Assembly: GCA_903932155.1 (NCBI GenBank)
Contig: CAIZFH010000285.1
Span: 1,351-65,350, forward strand
DNA length: 64,000 nt
Direction of reading: 5' to 3'
Origin: an uncultured Granulicella sp.
GTDB taxonomy: Bacteria > Acidobacteriota > Terriglobia > Terriglobales > Acidobacteriaceae
This document shows, piece after piece, positions 14,228-51,164 of this stretch. The notes under the pieces are model-generated. The model made no database searches and was not told where the DNA came from. It saw nothing but the letters and a program-made list of their open reading frames with translations. The position numbers and the translations under genes were made by a program. Positions within the stretch are counted from its first letter, which is position 1. Each line of letters opens with the position of its first letter.

Positions 14228-14998
14228 TTACTTAGAGATACCCTGCAGCGGCGAGCTGGCGGTAGCGTAGAGACGGCGCGCCATGCGGCCTGCGAGGAAA
14301 GCCTGACGGCCCGCGAGGACACCGTGCCGCATAGCCTCGGCCATCAGAATGGGGTTGTGGGCCTCGGCGATGGCGGTGTTCATCAGTACACCATCGAAGC
14401 CAAGCTCCATGGCGAGAGTGGCATCGGAGGCCGTGCCCACGCCGGCGTCGACGATGAGCGGGACTTCGGTGATGAGTTCGCGCAGGATGCGAAGGTTGGC
14501 GGTGTTCTGTAGGCCGAGGCCGCTGCCGATAGGTGCTCCGAGAGGCATGACGGCTGCTGCGCCGGCGTCGATAAGGCGATGGGCGTAGACGATGTCGTCA
14601 GAGGTGTAGGGCAGAACGGTGAAGCCCTCCTTGACCAGTACTCGGGTGGCCTCCAGTGTGGCCTGAATGTCGGGATAGAGAGTTGGTTTATCGCCGATGA
14701 CCTCAATCTTGACCCAGTCGGAGAGTCCCACTTCGCGACCGAGACGTGCCGCGCGAATCGCCTCGTCCGCCGTGAAACAGCCTGCGGTGTTGGGAAGCAG
14801 AAAGTAGCGCTTGGGATCGATGTAGTCGAGTAGCGACTCGGAGGAACGGTCGAGGTTGACACGGCGCACGGCTACTGTGACCATCTCCGCACCAGAAGCC
14901 TCGATGGCGGCCTTGGTCTGGGGACCATCCTTGTATTTCCCTGTTCCAACTATGAGGCGAGAGTTGAAGGTGCGACCTGCGATGACGAGAGATTCCAT
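14228..14998 (-). CDS. thiG: thiazole synthase
   Basis: [23 protein letters not shown] and [13 protein letters not shown] motifs; typical length of 256 aa. Confidence 0.92.
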
Positions 14999-15013
14999 GA
15001 GGGAAGTTTACTA

Positions 15014-15041
15014 GGTTCGAGGTTCAAGGTTCGAGGGAAAG
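15014..15041 (+). repeat. heptad microsatellite GGTTCGA GGTTCAA GGTTCGA GGGAAAG
   Basis: Direct reading: 7-nt period with a purine-rich tail. In complement orientation it lies within the thiG leader. Confidence 0.8.
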
Positions 15042-15804: not shown

Positions 15805-17244
15805 ATGCGGTCTCTGCTGGTTGTATTGCTCTTTTGCCCAGCGGCAGGCGAGGTCGCGGCACAGGCCTCGGGTTCACCGGCCCAAGAGACAGCGCATTCG
15901 ACAAGTGTGCAGCCTAAGCCGCATGCCGCTGGCCAGCCAGAATCTCTGACGATGTTTCCTCATCTCGACGGCACGCGGTATTACATCGCCGGACAGGCCA
16001 ACATCATCTTCCAGGCACATGGGCCGTTCCACTCGCCGTATGAGGGTATGAACAGCATGCTGGGGCGGGGGGAGTACAAGACGTCGCTGATCGGCACGCT
16101 GTATATGGGCGCGGAGCTGGTGCGAAACCCGGCGCGCCATCTGGAGGCTATCTACGACGAAGAGTCTGCCGGTGGGCGCGGCATCAGCGAAGCACTGGGG
16201 CTGGCAGGATTTACAAATCTGGACGTTGTGCGCAATCCCAATCTGGGCCCCACGCCTTATATGGCACGCGTGCAGTTGCATCAGACAATTGGCTTCTCAA
16301 GCAAGAGGGTGGATGCGGCGCGCGGACCGTTCTCGCTGGCGACCGAGGTGCCCGAGCGGCGGCTGGAGCTGCGCGTGGGCAAGATAGGGTTGCCGGATTT
16401 CTTCGACCTGAACAGCATCGGCACCGACAGCCACTTGCAATTTATGAACTGGACGGTGGACAACAACGGCGCATGGGACTACGCCGCCGACACACGCGGC
16501 TATACCTACGCCGCCATAGTGGAGTATGACGATAAGTACTGCTCCGCGCGCTACGGGCTGGCGTTGATGCCGACGGTAGCCAATGGGATCGATCTCGACT
16601 GGAGCCTTAAACGCACCAGCGGTCAAAACATGGAGTTCGAGTGGCGTCATGGCCTGCTGGGCGGACTGCTATCGCCTGAACACAAGGGAGTGATCCGCCT
16701 GTTGGGCTACGTCAACCATGCCAACATGGGCCTCTATCGTGCGGCGAATGCGGCGTATCTGGTGGGAGTGGACATGACGCCGGACATTACGAAGCATGAG
16801 ACGTTTGGCGCGGTGAAGTACGGCTTCGGCATGAACACCGAGCAGGAGCTGACAGCGGACCTGCGCGTCTTCGGACGTTTCGGATGGAACGAGGGGCAGC
16901 ACGAAAGCTACGCGTACACCGAAGTGGATCAGACAGTTGAACTGGGCGGCGACTTTGCGATCAGGCAATGGGGACGCGCCAGCGACAAGGTTGGGATGGC
17001 GTTCGTCTCGAATGCCATCAAGCGTGACCACCAGGAGTACTTGAAACTGGGCGGGGTAGGATTCTTGCTGGGCGATGGCAAGCTGAACTACGCGCGCGAA
17101 GACATTTTTGAGGGCTACTACACGCTGCATACCTGGCGCGGCCTTTACTACGCGCTGGATGCGCAGTACATTGTCCATCCCGGCTACAACCAGGAACGCG
17201 GGCCGGTACTGGTGGAGAGCGTGCGGATGCACGTGGACTTCTAG
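15805..17244 (+). CDS. carbohydrate-selective porin, OprB family
   Basis: FMNWTVDNNGAWDYAADTRGYTYAAIVEY and the overall beta-barrel pattern. Start chosen at ATG 15805 for the signal peptide MRSLLVVLLFCPAAGEVAAQA. The ORF is open from 15637, so the start is uncertain. Confidence 0.75.
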   Translation: MRSLLVVLLFCPAAGEVAAQASGSPAQETAHSTSVQPKPHAAGQPESLTMFPHLDGTRYYIAGQANIIFQAHGPFHSPYEGMNSMLGRGEYKTSLIGTLYMGAELVRNPARHLEAIYDEESAGGRGISEALGLAGFTNLDVVRNPNLGPTPYMARVQLHQTIGFSSKRVDAARGPFSLATEVPERRLELRVGKIGLPDFFDLNSIGTDSHLQFMNWTVDNNGAWDYAADTRGYTYAAIVEYDDKYCSARYGLALMPTVANGIDLDWSLKRTSGQNMEFEWRHGLLGGLLSPEHKGVIRLLGYVNHANMGLYRAANAAYLVGVDMTPDITKHETFGAVKYGFGMNTEQELTADLRVFGRFGWNEGQHESYAYTEVDQTVELGGDFAIRQWGRASDKVGMAFVSNAIKRDHQEYLKLGGVGFLLGDGKLNYAREDIFEGYYTLHTWRGLYYALDAQYIVHPGYNQERGPVLVESVRMHVDF

Positions 17245-17252
17245 AGTTTCCA

Positions 17253-17294
17253 GGTTCTAGGTGCTAGGTTCGAGGTTGAGGCAACGGGAAGACC
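17253..17294 (+). repeat. heptad microsatellite GGTTCTA GGTGCTA GGTTCGA GGTTGAG GCAACGG GAAGACC
   Basis: Direct reading. Ends 13 nt before the prepilin peptidase GTG. Confidence 0.75.
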
Positions 17295-17307: not shown

Positions 17308-18252
17308 GTGACATTGCTTTACCAATACGAGCTGCTCGGATTTGTTCTTGGACTGCTGTTTGGCAGCTTTCTGAACGTGTGCATCTCGCGGCTACCGGCG
17401 CGCCGCTCCATCGTGAAGCCGCGCTCACACTGCTCGGCTTGCGGCCATCACATCCGCTGGATCGACAATCTGCCAGTGTTGAGTTGGATGATGTTGCGTG
17501 GGCGCTGCCGGGACTGCAAAGCACGAATTTCGTGGCGCTATCCAGCAGTGGAACTGCTCACAGGGCTGTGGTTTCTTAGGTTTTTTTCTGATACATACGA
17601 CATCTTTGCGGGGACCGCTAACACAGACCTTCTGTTATGGATTTGGTGGGGTCAACATTGGACCCTCCTTCTAAGCCAGTTCATCCTCGGCTTTTTGCTG
17701 ATTGGGCTAATGGTGATGGACTGGCAGACGCAGCGGCTGCCGGATGCGTTCACGCTGACCGGGATCGGCATCGGCTTCTTGCTGACCTGCGTGCAGGCGT
17801 TCTTTCTGGCACCGGGCGAGGGTGACATTGTGCTCGACACGACGCACCAGCTTCGGCTCTCCAGTCCTGGGAGCTTTGCGTCGCAGGGGAACGTCTTTCT
17901 GACCGGCACGGAGGCACTGATTATGGGCCGCTTTGCGGCCATCGCCGGCGCTGCGTTGATTCTGCTCACGGTGCGCTGGGGATACAAGGCACTGCGCAAA
18001 CGCGACGGCATGGGCCTGGGTGATGTGAAACTACTGGCTATGATCGCCGCGTTTCTAGGCTTCAGGGAGACATTGTTGGCCCTGTTTGTTGCTGTACTTG
18101 CGGCCAGTATCTACGGCATCCTATTGCTCGCCCGGCGACAGGCCAGTGGAAACAGCAAACTGCCGCTGGGCAGCTTTCTGGCGGCCGGGGGGCTGTTCAG
18201 CGCACTGTGGGGGCCGCGAATCGTGGAATGGTATGTGAGCTTGCTGCGATAG
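17308..18252 (+). CDS. pilD: prepilin peptidase (A24 family, leader peptidase/N-methyltransferase)
   Basis: FLNVCISRLP, zinc-finger-like CSACGHHIRWIDNLPVLSWMMLRGRCRDCK, and GLGDVKLLAMIAAFLG. Confidence 0.88.
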   Translation: MTLLYQYELLGFVLGLLFGSFLNVCISRLPARRSIVKPRSHCSACGHHIRWIDNLPVLSWMMLRGRCRDCKARISWRYPAVELLTGLWFLRFFSDTYDIFAGTANTDLLLWIWWGQHWTLLLSQFILGFLLIGLMVMDWQTQRLPDAFTLTGIGIGFLLTCVQAFFLAPGEGDIVLDTTHQLRLSSPGSFASQGNVFLTGTEALIMGRFAAIAGAALILLTVRWGYKALRKRDGMGLGDVKLLAMIAAFLGFRETLLALFVAVLAASIYGILLLARRQASGNSKLPLGSFLAAGGLFSALWGPRIVEWYVSLLR

Positions 18253-19243: not shown

Positions 19244-19278
19244 GGTACGAGGCACAAGGTTCAAGGTAAAGGCAAAGA
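19244..19278 (+). repeat. heptad microsatellite GGTACGA GGCACAA GGTTCAA GGTAAAG GCAAAGA
   Basis: Fills the nuoC-nuoD spacer and ends 4 nt before the nuoD ATG. Confidence 0.75.
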
Positions 19279-47007: not shown

Positions 47008-48207
47008 CTATCCCATTGCGATCTCCACCAGCGCCGTGGGCGCGTCCACGGTGCGCTTTAGCTGGCCGCAGGCGGCGTAGATGTCGCGGCCACGGGGCTT
47101 GCGCGTAAACGTTGGAATACCGCCGTCGATTAGCATGCGATGAAATACAGCGACATCGGCGGGCGCAGGCTCGTTCAATTCGATGCCGGGGCCGGGGTTC
47201 CAGACGATCAGGTTCACCTTGGCCTTCATTCCGGCCAACAACTTCAGCACCTCGCGCGCGTGCTGGGGCTGATCGTTTACGCCGCCCAGCAGGACGTACT
47301 CGAAGGTCACATACTCCCGCTTGCCGAATGGGATCGTGCGCAGCGCGTCCAGTAGTGCGGCGATGTTCCATTTCTTTGTCACCGGCATGATCTGCTCACG
47401 CACCTCGTCGTTGGGTGCGTTCAGACTAAGCGCCAGCTTGGGCCGAATGGGCTCGTTCGCAAAACGCAAGATCCCAGGCAGGATTCCCGAGGTAGACACC
47501 GTCATGCGCGACTCGGGTATGCCCATGGTGCGCAGCAGATGGACGCTCTTCATGAAGGCGTCGTAGTTGAGGAAGGGTTCGCCCATACCCATAAAGACGA
47601 GGTTGATGCGCGATGGCGTCTGGACACCGCGCCCGCTGCCAATGCGCACTCGCTGACGGTTGAGCACGGCGGCCACCTGACCGGCGATCTCGCCCGCAGT
47701 GAGGTTGCGCCTCATGCCGAGCTTCGCGGTGAGGCAAAACTGGCAGTTGACCGCGCAGCCCACCTGGCTGGAAATGCAGATGGTCGCGCGCTTGTACTGC
47801 TGTTCCCTGTTGCCTGTTCCCTGTTCGCCGGCCTCTTCTTCCAACGCGGCCTGGCTGCCATCGCCGCGCTCGCCGCCGTCGCCATCGGGCATCCACACGG
47901 TCTCCACGGTCTCGCCGTCGGCCATGCGCATCAGGTATCTCTCGGTGCCGTCCACCGAGCGCGTTGCCTGGGCTATCTCCGGTAGACCCACAATGTAACC
48001 CTCGGCGACGAGTCGCTGGCGCAGGTCTTCAGGAAGTGTGGTGATCTCGTCCAGCGTCTGTAGGCGCTGCTTGTAGAGAGCGTCGGCCAACTGCATGGCG
48101 CGGTACTTAGCCAGGCCGAGCGACGCGACCACGCCGCATAGCTCATCGGGCATCAACCCGAAGAGCGGGAGCGGCTGCGTCTCAGTTGTGATGTGATCCT
48201 TCACCAT
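47008..48207 (-). CDS. rlmN: 23S rRNA/tRNA (adenine-C2)-methyltransferase RlmN (radical SAM)
   Basis: ISSQVGCAVNCQFCLT radical-SAM cluster and GMGEPFLNY. Start ATG 48207; the track extension to 48408 overlaps the upstream gene. Confidence 0.9.
   Translation of the reverse strand: MVKDHITTETQPLPLFGLMPDELCGVVASLGLAKYRAMQLADALYKQRLQTLDEITTLPEDLRQRLVAEGYIVGLPEIAQATRSVDGTERYLMRMADGETVETVWMPDGDGGERGDGSQAALEEEAGEQGTGNREQQYKRATICISSQVGCAVNCQFCLTAKLGMRRNLTAGEIAGQVAAVLNRQRVRIGSGRGVQTPSRINLVFMGMGEPFLNYDAFMKSVHLLRTMGIPESRMTVSTSGILPGILRFANEPIRPKLALSLNAPNDEVREQIMPVTKKWNIAALLDALRTIPFGKREYVTFEYVLLGGVNDQPQHAREVLKLLAGMKAKVNLIVWNPGPGIELNEPAPADVAVFHRMLIDGGIPTFTRKPRGRDIYAACGQLKRTVDAPTALVEIAMG
47800..47827 (-). 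repeat. heptad repeat (GAACAGG)x4 inside rlmN coding sequence
   Basis: Plus strand reads CTGTTCC CTGTTGC CTGTTCC CTGTTCG. Encodes part of GEQGTGNREQQ. Confidence 0.75.
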
Positions 48208-50571: not shown

Positions 50572-50587
50572 GCCGCGCCCTGTTAGA

Positions 50588-50607
50588 GTTTCAATCGAGA
50601 TTGAAAC
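50588..50607. promoter_or_regulatory. perfect 8-bp inverted repeat GTTTCAAT-CGAG-ATTGAAAC
   Basis: Lies between the M16 stop and the pilin-like ATG (23 nt upstream of ATG 50631). No T-tract. Confidence 0.3.
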
Positions 50608-50630
50608 GCACATCTCGCAGCAGAGGAACC

Positions 50631-51164
50631 ATGAAGAACACCCAACGTACCTTGAACCAAGAACCTCGGACCTCGAACCTTGAACTGGGCTTCACATTGA
50701 TCGAACTGTTGATTGTGATGTCGATCATGCTGATCATCATGGCATTTGCCGTCCCGCAGATGCTGAAGGTGAAGAAGACGGCGGACGAGGACTCCGCCAT
50801 ACAGACCCTGCGCACCATCGGATCTGCGGAGGCCAGCTTTAACTCCGCGTATCCGGGCACGGGCTATGCCTGTCCGCTGGCTTCGCTAGGCGGCGACCCC
50901 AAGTCCGGCGCTCCGTCAGCCACGGCCGCCCAGTTGATCGATCCCGCGCTGGCCACCAGCGGACAGAAGTCGGGCTACACGTTCACCGTCACCTGCGGAA
51001 CTAAAGTCACCGTCAACAATCAGGATATGTACACCTCGTACACCCTGACCGCCGTGCCCCAGACGGTAGGCAAGACAGGCGACCGCGGCTACTGCTCCGA
51101 CGAGAACGACATCATCAAGTTCGACCCAACTGGAGCGACCAACTGCACCCAGTCGATACAGTAG
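50631..51164 (+). CDS. prepilin-type N-terminal cleavage/methylation domain protein (type IV pilin / pseudopilin-like)
   Basis: G|FTLIELLIVMSIMLIIMAFAVPQ class III signal. ATG 50631 preceded by AGAGGA. Unusually long 20-aa leader encoded by heptad repeats. Confidence 0.85.
   Translation: MKNTQRTLNQEPRTSNLELGFTLIELLIVMSIMLIIMAFAVPQMLKVKKTADEDSAIQTLRTIGSAEASFNSAYPGTGYACPLASLGGDPKSGAPSATAAQLIDPALATSGQKSGYTFTVTCGTKVTVNNQDMYTSYTLTAVPQTVGKTGDRGYCSDENDIIKFDPTGATNCTQSIQ
50645..50686 (-). repeat. six imperfect heptads (complement of GGTWCRA) inside the pilin leader-peptide coding region
   Basis: Plus strand reads ACGTACC TTGAACC AAGAACC TCGGACC TCGAACC TTGAACT. Confidence 0.8.

Follow-up and report, generated by a model that had tools for sequence, protein, structure and literature searches.

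The leader peptide of a PilA-like type IV prepilin from an uncultured Granulicella sp. (Acidobacteriaceae) is encoded largely by a tandem array of six imperfect 7-nucleotide (nt) units, which belong to a dispersed repeat family with the consensus TNGNACC. The gene lies in a stretch of 64,000 nt (GenBank assembly GCA_903932155.1, contig CAIZFH010000285.1, positions 1,351 to 65,350 of the forward strand) that is called the window here and by whose positions its features are numbered. We propose that the array is probably a tolerated, and perhaps length-providing, repeat passenger in the predicted cleaved leader of the prepilin, and that it is neither an ON/OFF switch for the pilin nor an element that masks the Shine-Dalgarno (SD) sequence.

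In the mechanism that we propose, the array, an in-frame translated copy of a dispersed heptanucleotide family, (TNGNACC)n with the complement (GGTNCNA)n, would represent a solo sense arm. Paired arrays of the same family form hairpins with heptamer arms. The hydrophilic leader from the start codon to the cleavage site (G↓F, where the arrow marks cleavage) may be the only part of a prepilin gene able to absorb such DNA. The leader would be translated and then removed by the prepilin peptidase on the cytoplasmic side. Selection would act on the length, openness and hydrophilicity of the leader, on E or D at position -3 and on G at position -1, and not on its sequence, while slippage and ectopic exchange between arrays would keep regenerating consensus units.

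The array lies within the translated leader

Read directly, the sequence at 50645-50686 consists of six imperfect TNGNACC heptads in phase, ACGTACC TTGAACC AAGAACC TCGGACC TCGAACC TTGAACT, and is identical to the description given in an earlier note on this DNA. Tandem Repeats Finder (TRF) reports the array with a period of 7, 5.3 copies and a score of 39. It also stands above chance, with 10 matches of the two-unit pattern in the window against 1.07 expected, a number reached by none of 100 shuffles. The arithmetic of the earlier note is correct as well: the 42 nt of the array are in frame, and a change by one unit would shift the frame. The features of the locus are as follows (lengths of peptides are in amino acids, aa).

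50588..50607, + strand: small inverted repeat GTTTCAAT-cgag-ATTGAAAC in the 5' untranslated region (UTR), conserved between alleles
50622..50627, + strand: SD sequence AGAGGA, whose GAGG core ends 4 nt before the ATG, invariant in a 4-sequence alignment
50631..51164, + strand: PilA-like type IV prepilin gene, 177 aa, flanked by an M16 peptidase gene and a LolA-like gene
50631..50690, + strand: prepilin leader from start codon to Gly codon, with ATG and SD kept in alleles and a match to N_methyl
50645..50686, + strand: heptad array of the TNGNACC family in sense orientation, six imperfect units translated in frame as ...RTLNQEPRTSNLEL

The open reading frame (ORF) from ATG 50631 to TAG 51164 encodes MKNTQRTLNQEPRTSNLELG↓FTLIELLIVMS, with the Gly codon at 50688. 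The protein has the layout of a class III signal peptide (MKNTQRTLNQEPRTSNLELG↓FTLIELLIVMSIMLIIMAFAV), with a hydrophilic leader, Gly at -1, a hydrophobic stretch and Glu at +5. It scores 26.7 bits against PF07963 (N_methyl; cut-off 21.2) and 25.7 bits against TIGR02532 (cut-off 16.3). The N_methyl match and the conserved SD-ATG bear out the earlier statement that the array lies inside the translated leader, between ATG 50631 and the G↓F of the prepilin.

Twenty-four genomes of the same genus contain orthologs whose hypervariable leaders measure 12-23 aa, lack heptads and finish with (E/D)-x-G↓FTLIELLIVMS. The long leader therefore does not depend on the array, and the array was ruled out as its cause. 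The 20-aa leader cannot be called unusually long for this gene family, as the earlier note had done.

The site of translation initiation is conserved. Most metagenomic alleles share the SD-ATG sequence (AGAGGAAC-C-ATG), as does L002, an ortholog from the genus, and the genus orthologs begin at the homologous M(N/K/T) codon. It could be argued that translation starts within or after the array, for example at TTG 50652, which is in frame, and that the array is 5' UTR like the mostly non-coding members of its family. We consider this scarcely credible. The TTG at 50652 is missing in orthologous alleles, where AGAGGAAC-N-ATG is conserved, and no purine-rich SD stands ahead of it, for which reasons it was rejected as a start codon. 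No further in-frame ATG, GTG or TTG is present between the array and the Gly codon, and every allele on a reliable contig can be read without interruption from the conserved ATG.

The leader evolves as a DNA repeat

A protein search gave close relatives of the pilin at 67-94% identity, and DNA was recovered for about 40 distinct alleles, which are phylogenetically related, so that allele counts are not independent events. All of the ~40 alleles lie in one neighbourhood on their metagenomic contigs, in the order M16 peptidase, pilin, LolA, HAD, DHDPS. About half of the close-relative leaders contain LEPRTSNLE-type peptides, and leaders with three or more TNGNACC units, mostly in a shared register to the Gly codon, occur in ~20 of the ~40 alleles. 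The array of allele L169, for instance, reads TCGCACC TCGCACC TCGAACC TCGCACC TCGAACC TCGAACT. The nearest allele to that of the window (L170, 94% identity) is shorter by 6 nt and lacks a recognisable array, and the gene is otherwise intact. A natural array-free leader reads MKTIARTLTTRRTQLELG. Leader length ranges from 15 to 34 aa across alleles. The number of recognisable units varies from 3 to 7 between distant alleles, whose length differences are 3, 6 or 15 nt and not multiples of 7 or 21. Allele pairs that are less than 1% diverged have equal unit numbers and are one or two point changes apart. Pairs that are 4-7% diverged in the mature part may carry unrelated leaders, which are of the heptad type, the TNLAITRPQRYRDLG type or the SFRSEAEESA type, the last of them similar to repetitive extragenic palindromes (REP-like).

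Nine alleles were aligned without gaps, and mean pairwise differences were compared by class of site. In the mature part, which is subject to strong purifying selection at the protein level, these differences are 0.082, 0.057 and 0.347 at the first, second and third codon positions. Over all 42 nt of the array the mean pairwise difference is 0.293. The fixed heptad positions differ by 0.231, 0.225 and 0.228 at codon positions 1, 2 and 3, so that a codon effect is absent (p = 0.15), while the free heptad positions (2 and 4) differ by 0.456 against a fixed mean of 0.228 (permutation p = 0.0025). Changes at these most variable sites are mostly non-synonymous. Variation follows heptad positions and not codon positions, and there is therefore no protein-level selection on the leader: it evolves as a DNA repeat and not as a protein. 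The free positions differ more than synonymous sites and the fixed positions less, a pattern that unit turnover through slippage or ectopic exchange would yield; it does not require selection but is compatible with it. The heptad also imposes rare codons, since CCT accounts for 12% of Pro codons and CGA for 7.6% of Arg codons genome-wide.

Repeats of TCGAACC encode the cyclic peptide SNLEPRT in all three frames, free of stop codons. An in-frame array would be harmless because this peptide is also hydrophilic in whichever frame it is read. The same property bears on a peptide-level function, in which an (SNLEPRT)n-type leader would be selected, for example, because the acidobacterial prepilin peptidase recognises it, because it aids targeting or because it acts as a peptide after its release. 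That LEPRTSNLE recurs in numerous orthologs from two pilin families, directly ahead of (E/D)-x-G↓F, could be taken to favour such a function, as could the GAA of the last unit, which gives the acidic residue at -3 that is found in array-free orthologs too. However, the motif recurs because every frame of TCGAACC repeats yields the one cyclic peptide. Antisense arrays, which encode another peptide (GSRFEVR), serve equally in GspG-like leaders, and many close alleles have unrelated leaders. Together with the largely non-synonymous variable sites and the equal divergence of fixed positions at the three codon positions, this makes a function of the peptide very improbable, and protein-level selection on LEPRTSNLE itself is ruled out by the comparison of codon with heptad positions.

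Other repeat-looking sequences are translated within the leaders of three PilA-like alleles (L194, L197 and L205) and of three GspG-like orthologs (L154, L156 and L159). Two such sequences are a palindromic element encoding ...SFRSEAEESA... and an inverted repeat of the GGGTGCCCCA... type. The prepilin leader seems to collect several kinds of intergenic-repeat-like sequence.

No support for the array as a slippage switch or a mask for the SD

The earlier note had suggested that the array may be a contingency (phase-variable) locus, in which slipped-strand mispairing of one 7-nt unit turns the pilin ON or OFF. The unit length is indeed indivisible by 3, and the array separates the start codon from the part that encodes the mature protein. 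Leader length varies between distant alleles, and cleaner tracts exist, such as four identical TCGAACC units in the second pilin of L216 or the pair of identical neighbouring units that L169 and L193 each contain. In the window, however, no neighbouring units are identical, with adjacent identity of 4-6 of 7. The ~37 alleles found on reliable contigs are all in frame and begin with MKT or MNT. The sole frameshifted allele (L176) comes from a nanopore contig on which the neighbouring M16 gene is likewise broken. The unit number is equal in close alleles, the length differences between alleles are not those expected from whole units, and the repeat family is genome-wide and mostly non-coding. 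A slippage switch is highly unlikely on these grounds, and not on those foreseen in the earlier note: the unit number is not invariant but differs between distant alleles, and the leader peptide has no protein-level conservation. A metagenome scan for the exact locus with a variable gap of 15-45 nt gave 0 matches.

A coding repeat of the CTCTT pentamer is found in the signal-peptide region of the Neisseria opa genes, where the tracts are long, perfect and polymorphic and include OFF alleles. Like the opa repeat, the unit in the window is not a multiple of 3 and is placed between the start codon and the mature protein, where gain or loss shifts the frame. Unlike opa, the units are imperfect, close alleles are equal in unit number and reliable contigs yield no OFF allele. 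The resemblance to opa is superficial, as the array does not pass the defining tests of a contingency locus.

Masking of the SD by the repeated CCUC/CCUU cores of the mRNA, also put forward in the earlier note, found no support in predicted RNA structures. Folds of 50575-50720 (146 nt; z = +0.17) and 50612-50700 (89 nt; z = +1.11) are no more stable than those of shuffled sequences. Pairing of the SD with CCUC appears only in a minimum-energy structure with an ensemble frequency of 0.0016 and is absent from the centroid. A sigma-54 promoter, suspected by eye in the upstream TGGC...GC, was also rejected, since these letters are wrongly spaced for one and belong to the end of the M16 peptidase gene.

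A dispersed family of TNGNACC repeats

The source draft genome comprises 3.88 Mb in 319 contigs with 59% GC. At least 69 arrays of at least three TNGNACC units are present in this 3.9-Mb genome, as against 0 in each of three Markov-3 shuffles. The longest arrays, of 17 TAGTACC units (C62:35069-35187) and 6 TAGTACC units (C24:2-43), are found at contig ends. Arrays of TAGTACC at contig ends probably break the assembly, and the count of 69 is for that reason a lower bound. Fifty-eight of the 69 arrays lie outside called genes or at gene edges, a placement that depends on the calls of a home-made gene caller, and many fill the spacer right up against a start or stop codon. Their orientation is unbiased, with 24 sense and 24 antisense arrays at gene 5' ends and 20 sense and 28 antisense arrays at 3' ends. 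The four inverted pairs of arrays in the genome are all arranged as 5'-(GGTNCNA)n...(TNGNACC)n-3'.

Four perfect units match at 41 places in the source genome and at 6 in G020, which belongs to the same genus, but nowhere in 39 other relatives, and a reversed control pattern has no match in any of these genomes. The TNGNACC family is lineage-specific among the relatives compared. Farther afield, a scan made without a control pattern found perfect arrays of 5-22 TNGNACC heptads (TAGAACC, TCGAACC, TTGAACC, TAGCACC, TGGCACC, etc.) at at least 120 loci in many phyla. The matches listed include Pseudoalteromonas, Shewanella, Vibrio, Streptomyces, Verrucomicrobiota, Bacteroidota and other Acidobacteriaceae, and none of the 120 matches listed is an array beside a pilin motif in another phylum.

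Further members of the family in the window, and the prepilin peptidase gene near one of them, are listed below (the labels thiG-like, nuoC-like and nuoD-like are our reading of the translations).

15013..15036, - strand: array TCGAACC TTGAACC TCGAACC, ~65 nt upstream of the probable ATG (~14948) of a minus-strand thiG-like gene
17244..17281, - strand: array reading GGTTCTA GGTGCTA GGTTCGA GGTTGAG on the + strand, after the stop codon of the preceding gene and before the start of the prepilin peptidase gene
17308..18252, + strand: prepilin peptidase gene with a GTG start (A24_N_bact 1.1e-36, Peptidase_A24 5.1e-13)
19244..19264, - strand: array that fills the spacer between same-strand nuoC-like and nuoD-like genes

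The longest ORF of the thiG-like gene (14228-14998) starts 15 nt from its array. Judged by its domain matches, the peptidase encoded at 17308-18252 is expected to be the enzyme that removes the pilin leader. The earlier note had placed a repeat of the same family in the leader of this peptidase. The repeat is real and was reported by TRF at 17244-17281, but it is intergenic, lies 27 nt upstream of GTG 17308 in the opposite orientation and is no part of a leader peptide.

Enrichment in prepilin leaders and a possible regulatory role

Only three ORFs in the source genome exceed the cut-offs of N_methyl and TIGR02532. One is the window pilin, and the other two are pseudopilin genes that follow a secretin gene on contig C245. 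The two pseudopilin genes (C245:21774-22570) have leaders built of repeats. In the first (ATG 21820) the leader of 38 aa consists of a decayed antisense arm and a sense arm, which fold at -49 kcal/mol (z = -4.8). In the second a sense array of 10 units stands before G↓FTLLELMIV, and the frame is open to an ATG that overlaps the prior stop (ATGGTAA), which implies a leader of ~71 aa. The first-pseudopilin leaders of the loci L216 and L217 are complete hairpins with heptamer arms, composed of ATG-A, (GGTTCRA)4-5, a loop of 28 to ~70 nt and a TCGAACC-type sense arm, followed after 7-15 nt by the Gly codon, and that of L216 is translated as MRFKVRGSRFKVRRKAGYRRFSLEPRTSNLEPDAG↓LTLVELIIC. A hairpin of the same kind is found in the second pilin of L217, farther from its ATG (44 nt after it). 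The hairpins in the first pseudopilin gene of L216, L217 and C245 begin 1-23 nt after the ATG.

Several observations weigh against the reading of the array as a tolerated passenger. In all three prepilin genes of the genome, 2-16 nt separate the end of a sense array from the Gly codon that follows it. Because a sense array is present at the 5' end of only ~0.8% of called genes, three of three would occur by chance with a probability of ~6e-7. Related metagenomic contigs totalling 287 kb hold ~18 arrays in a pilin leader and 2 elsewhere. Leader peptides of the sense heptad type (e.g., LEPRTSNLE) are found in 54 of 118 PilA-like orthologs (46%). Among 118 GspG-like orthologs, 26 have sense-type leaders, 20 have antisense-type leaders (e.g., RFEVRGSRF; MVDRFEVRGSRFEV...) and 2 have both, about 37% being heptad-derived. 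The mature parts of these two sets of 118 orthologs contain 0 and 2 heptad-derived peptides. Leader arrays persist across alleles that are ~35% different at synonymous sites, yet four-unit arrays are missing from the entire genomes of 23 of 24 genus-level relatives. The leader RNAs of L216 and L217 fold at -54 to -60 kcal/mol (z = -3.5 to -3.9), and such stable leader hairpins hint at a cis-acting role in the pseudopilin genes. The enrichment and persistence of arrays in prepilin leaders go beyond what tolerance by itself explains, and a cis-regulatory role is therefore a serious rival.

As a cis-regulatory element, an array or hairpin immediately behind the start codon of a prepilin gene would govern translation or the stability of the mRNA, through intramolecular structure, through pairing with complementary arrays elsewhere or through a protein that reads heptads, and the array of the window would act as a solo arm in trans or via a factor. 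We regard this as possible though on balance unlikely. In its favour stand the sense array beside the Gly codon in all three prepilin genes, an enrichment of ~50-fold over other gene boundaries on related contigs, and the persistence of arrays in ~40% of >200 orthologs of two unrelated pilin families. The hairpins of -49 to -60 kcal/mol shortly after pseudopilin ATGs, the family array that also precedes the prepilin peptidase gene and the slower divergence of fixed heptad positions relative to synonymous sites point the same way, as does a different heptad family (CAGTTAT/CAGTCAT) in the leader of an ortholog from genome G026. Yet the slow fixed positions are also expected from slippage-driven turnover of units. 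The family shows no orientation bias genome-wide, and unrelated thiG-like and nuo-like genes are flanked as well. The array of the window has no partner arm or predicted structure, and the closest allele, at 94% identity, lacks the array in a gene that is otherwise intact. G020, the only genus relative with the family, does not have it at its pilins: its single N_methyl gene encodes a 9-aa leader without an array.

A broader and more doubtful version of this regulatory reading is that the leader segments of Acidobacteriaceae prepilins and pseudopilins are a preferred, maintained niche for heptamer elements that regulate in cis the synthesis of pilus and type II secretion subunits. RNA or DNA hairpins behind the start codon might do so, or solo arms that pair with complementary arrays or bind a reader of heptads, for example the four-helix-bundle proteins of PF05635 whose genes heptad arrays bracket in the source genome, and the elements would be translated and then discarded by the prepilin peptidase. 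Of these possibilities, we continue to prefer the tolerated passenger for the array of the window.

The ortholog of the window pilin in G020 (L143, G020:C8:319200-320300) looks degenerate, with a short leader MKESSSG, loss of Glu5 (GFTVLQVV) and a frame change before the conserved globular part. The ortholog from G026 (L166, G026:C19) is a distant GspG-like protein from another family of the same order, and its leader MVRQFSVISHQLSVRRPQRRSLG↓F is encoded by CAGTTAT/CAGTCAT heptads. It is an independent case of a heptamer array within a prepilin leader.

Comparison with known repeats and leaders

Prokaryotic heptanucleotide long simple sequence repeats, among them the cyanobacterial STRR repeats, are of unknown function according to the summary of Mrazek et al. 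(2007) in PMC4679880. As far as that summary describes them, the TNGNACC arrays resemble these repeats in being short tandem arrays of 7 nt that occur dozens of times per genome, are mostly intergenic and are abundant in some lineages while close relatives lack them (PMC4679880). They differ from the STRR-type repeats, as there described, in that TNGNACC is degenerate with two free positions and in that the arrays are short (3-10 units), imperfect and in some cases translated as a prepilin leader. The TNGNACC arrays fit the class of prokaryotic heptanucleotide simple-sequence repeats, and also that of the TAACTGA repeats (PMC4679880). No publication on TNGNACC arrays or LEPRTSN-type leaders came up in a literature search by representative family units and by peptide motifs.

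The TAACTGA repeats of marine Beggiatoaceae, cyanobacteria and Bacteroidetes are heptamers concentrated just upstream of start codons (MacGregor, 2015; PMC4679880). A few of them are read in frame in the 'reverse' orientation and give LSVISYQ-type peptides, and a translational role has been proposed (PMC4679880). The complement of the TAACTGA heptamer is found in the prepilin leader of G026/L166 (MVRQFSVISHQLSV...). TNGNACC is, by contrast, another sequence family, and it has no orientation preference in the source genome. An association with class III signal peptides is absent from the TAACTGA paper (PMC4679880).

Class III leaders are hydrophilic and end in Gly, followed by ~21 hydrophobic residues with Glu5 (Berry and Pelicic, 2015; PMC4471445). 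Known class III leaders are 6-26 aa long, those of type IVa up to 18 aa (PMC4471445). In comparison, the leader is 20 aa in the window pilin, and the leaders of the pseudopilins, which are built of repeat elements, are 38 aa and apparently up to ~70-80 aa long. Class III leaders may thus be long, hypervariable and made of repeat-element DNA, and for this reason their length or sequence would be a poor classifier in this phylum.

To our knowledge, heptanucleotide repeats (STRR, TAACTGA and related ones) have been known for decades without an established function. At the locus of the window, its two paralogs and >200 orthologs, heptamer repeats are translated as part of a predicted cleaved signal peptide, and they are far commoner there than at other gene boundaries. 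The window pilin offers a compact system, with one gene, one leader and natural alleles with and without the array. If the enrichment reflects only tolerance and selection on length, the leader would still be a clear case of a coding region that behaves as intergenic DNA. If the regulatory reading is true, it would provide a first concrete and testable function for the long-unexplained STRR-type heptamer repeats.

PF05635 genes and minor features

The three genes for PF05635 (23S rRNA intervening-sequence protein) in the source genome are all bracketed by inverted heptad arrays, each of another type.

C30:7709-8026: PF05635 gene bracketed by GTGGATA/TATCCAC
C55:11401-11715: PF05635 gene bracketed by degenerate GGNNCNA/TNGNNCC, a loose form of the TNGNACC family
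C154:11925-12239: PF05635 gene bracketed by AGGGAAC-type units and their complement, which is CTGTTCC-like

Compared with these heptamer-armed hairpin/PF05635 cassettes, the leaders of the pseudopilins match the two-arm hairpin layout, whereas the array of the window is a solo 3' arm. The window pilin locus has a sense arm only, with no partner arm and no PF05635 gene nearby, and is not a hairpin cassette. Elsewhere in the window, four tandem CTGTTCC units occur at 47800-47826 (TRF score 47).

The 5' UTR of the pilin gene is more conserved between alleles than the leader. Each arm of the inverted repeat at 50588-50607 is similar to one heptad unit (GGTTCAA / TTGAACC), and the repeat might serve the pilin gene as an operator or RNA element.

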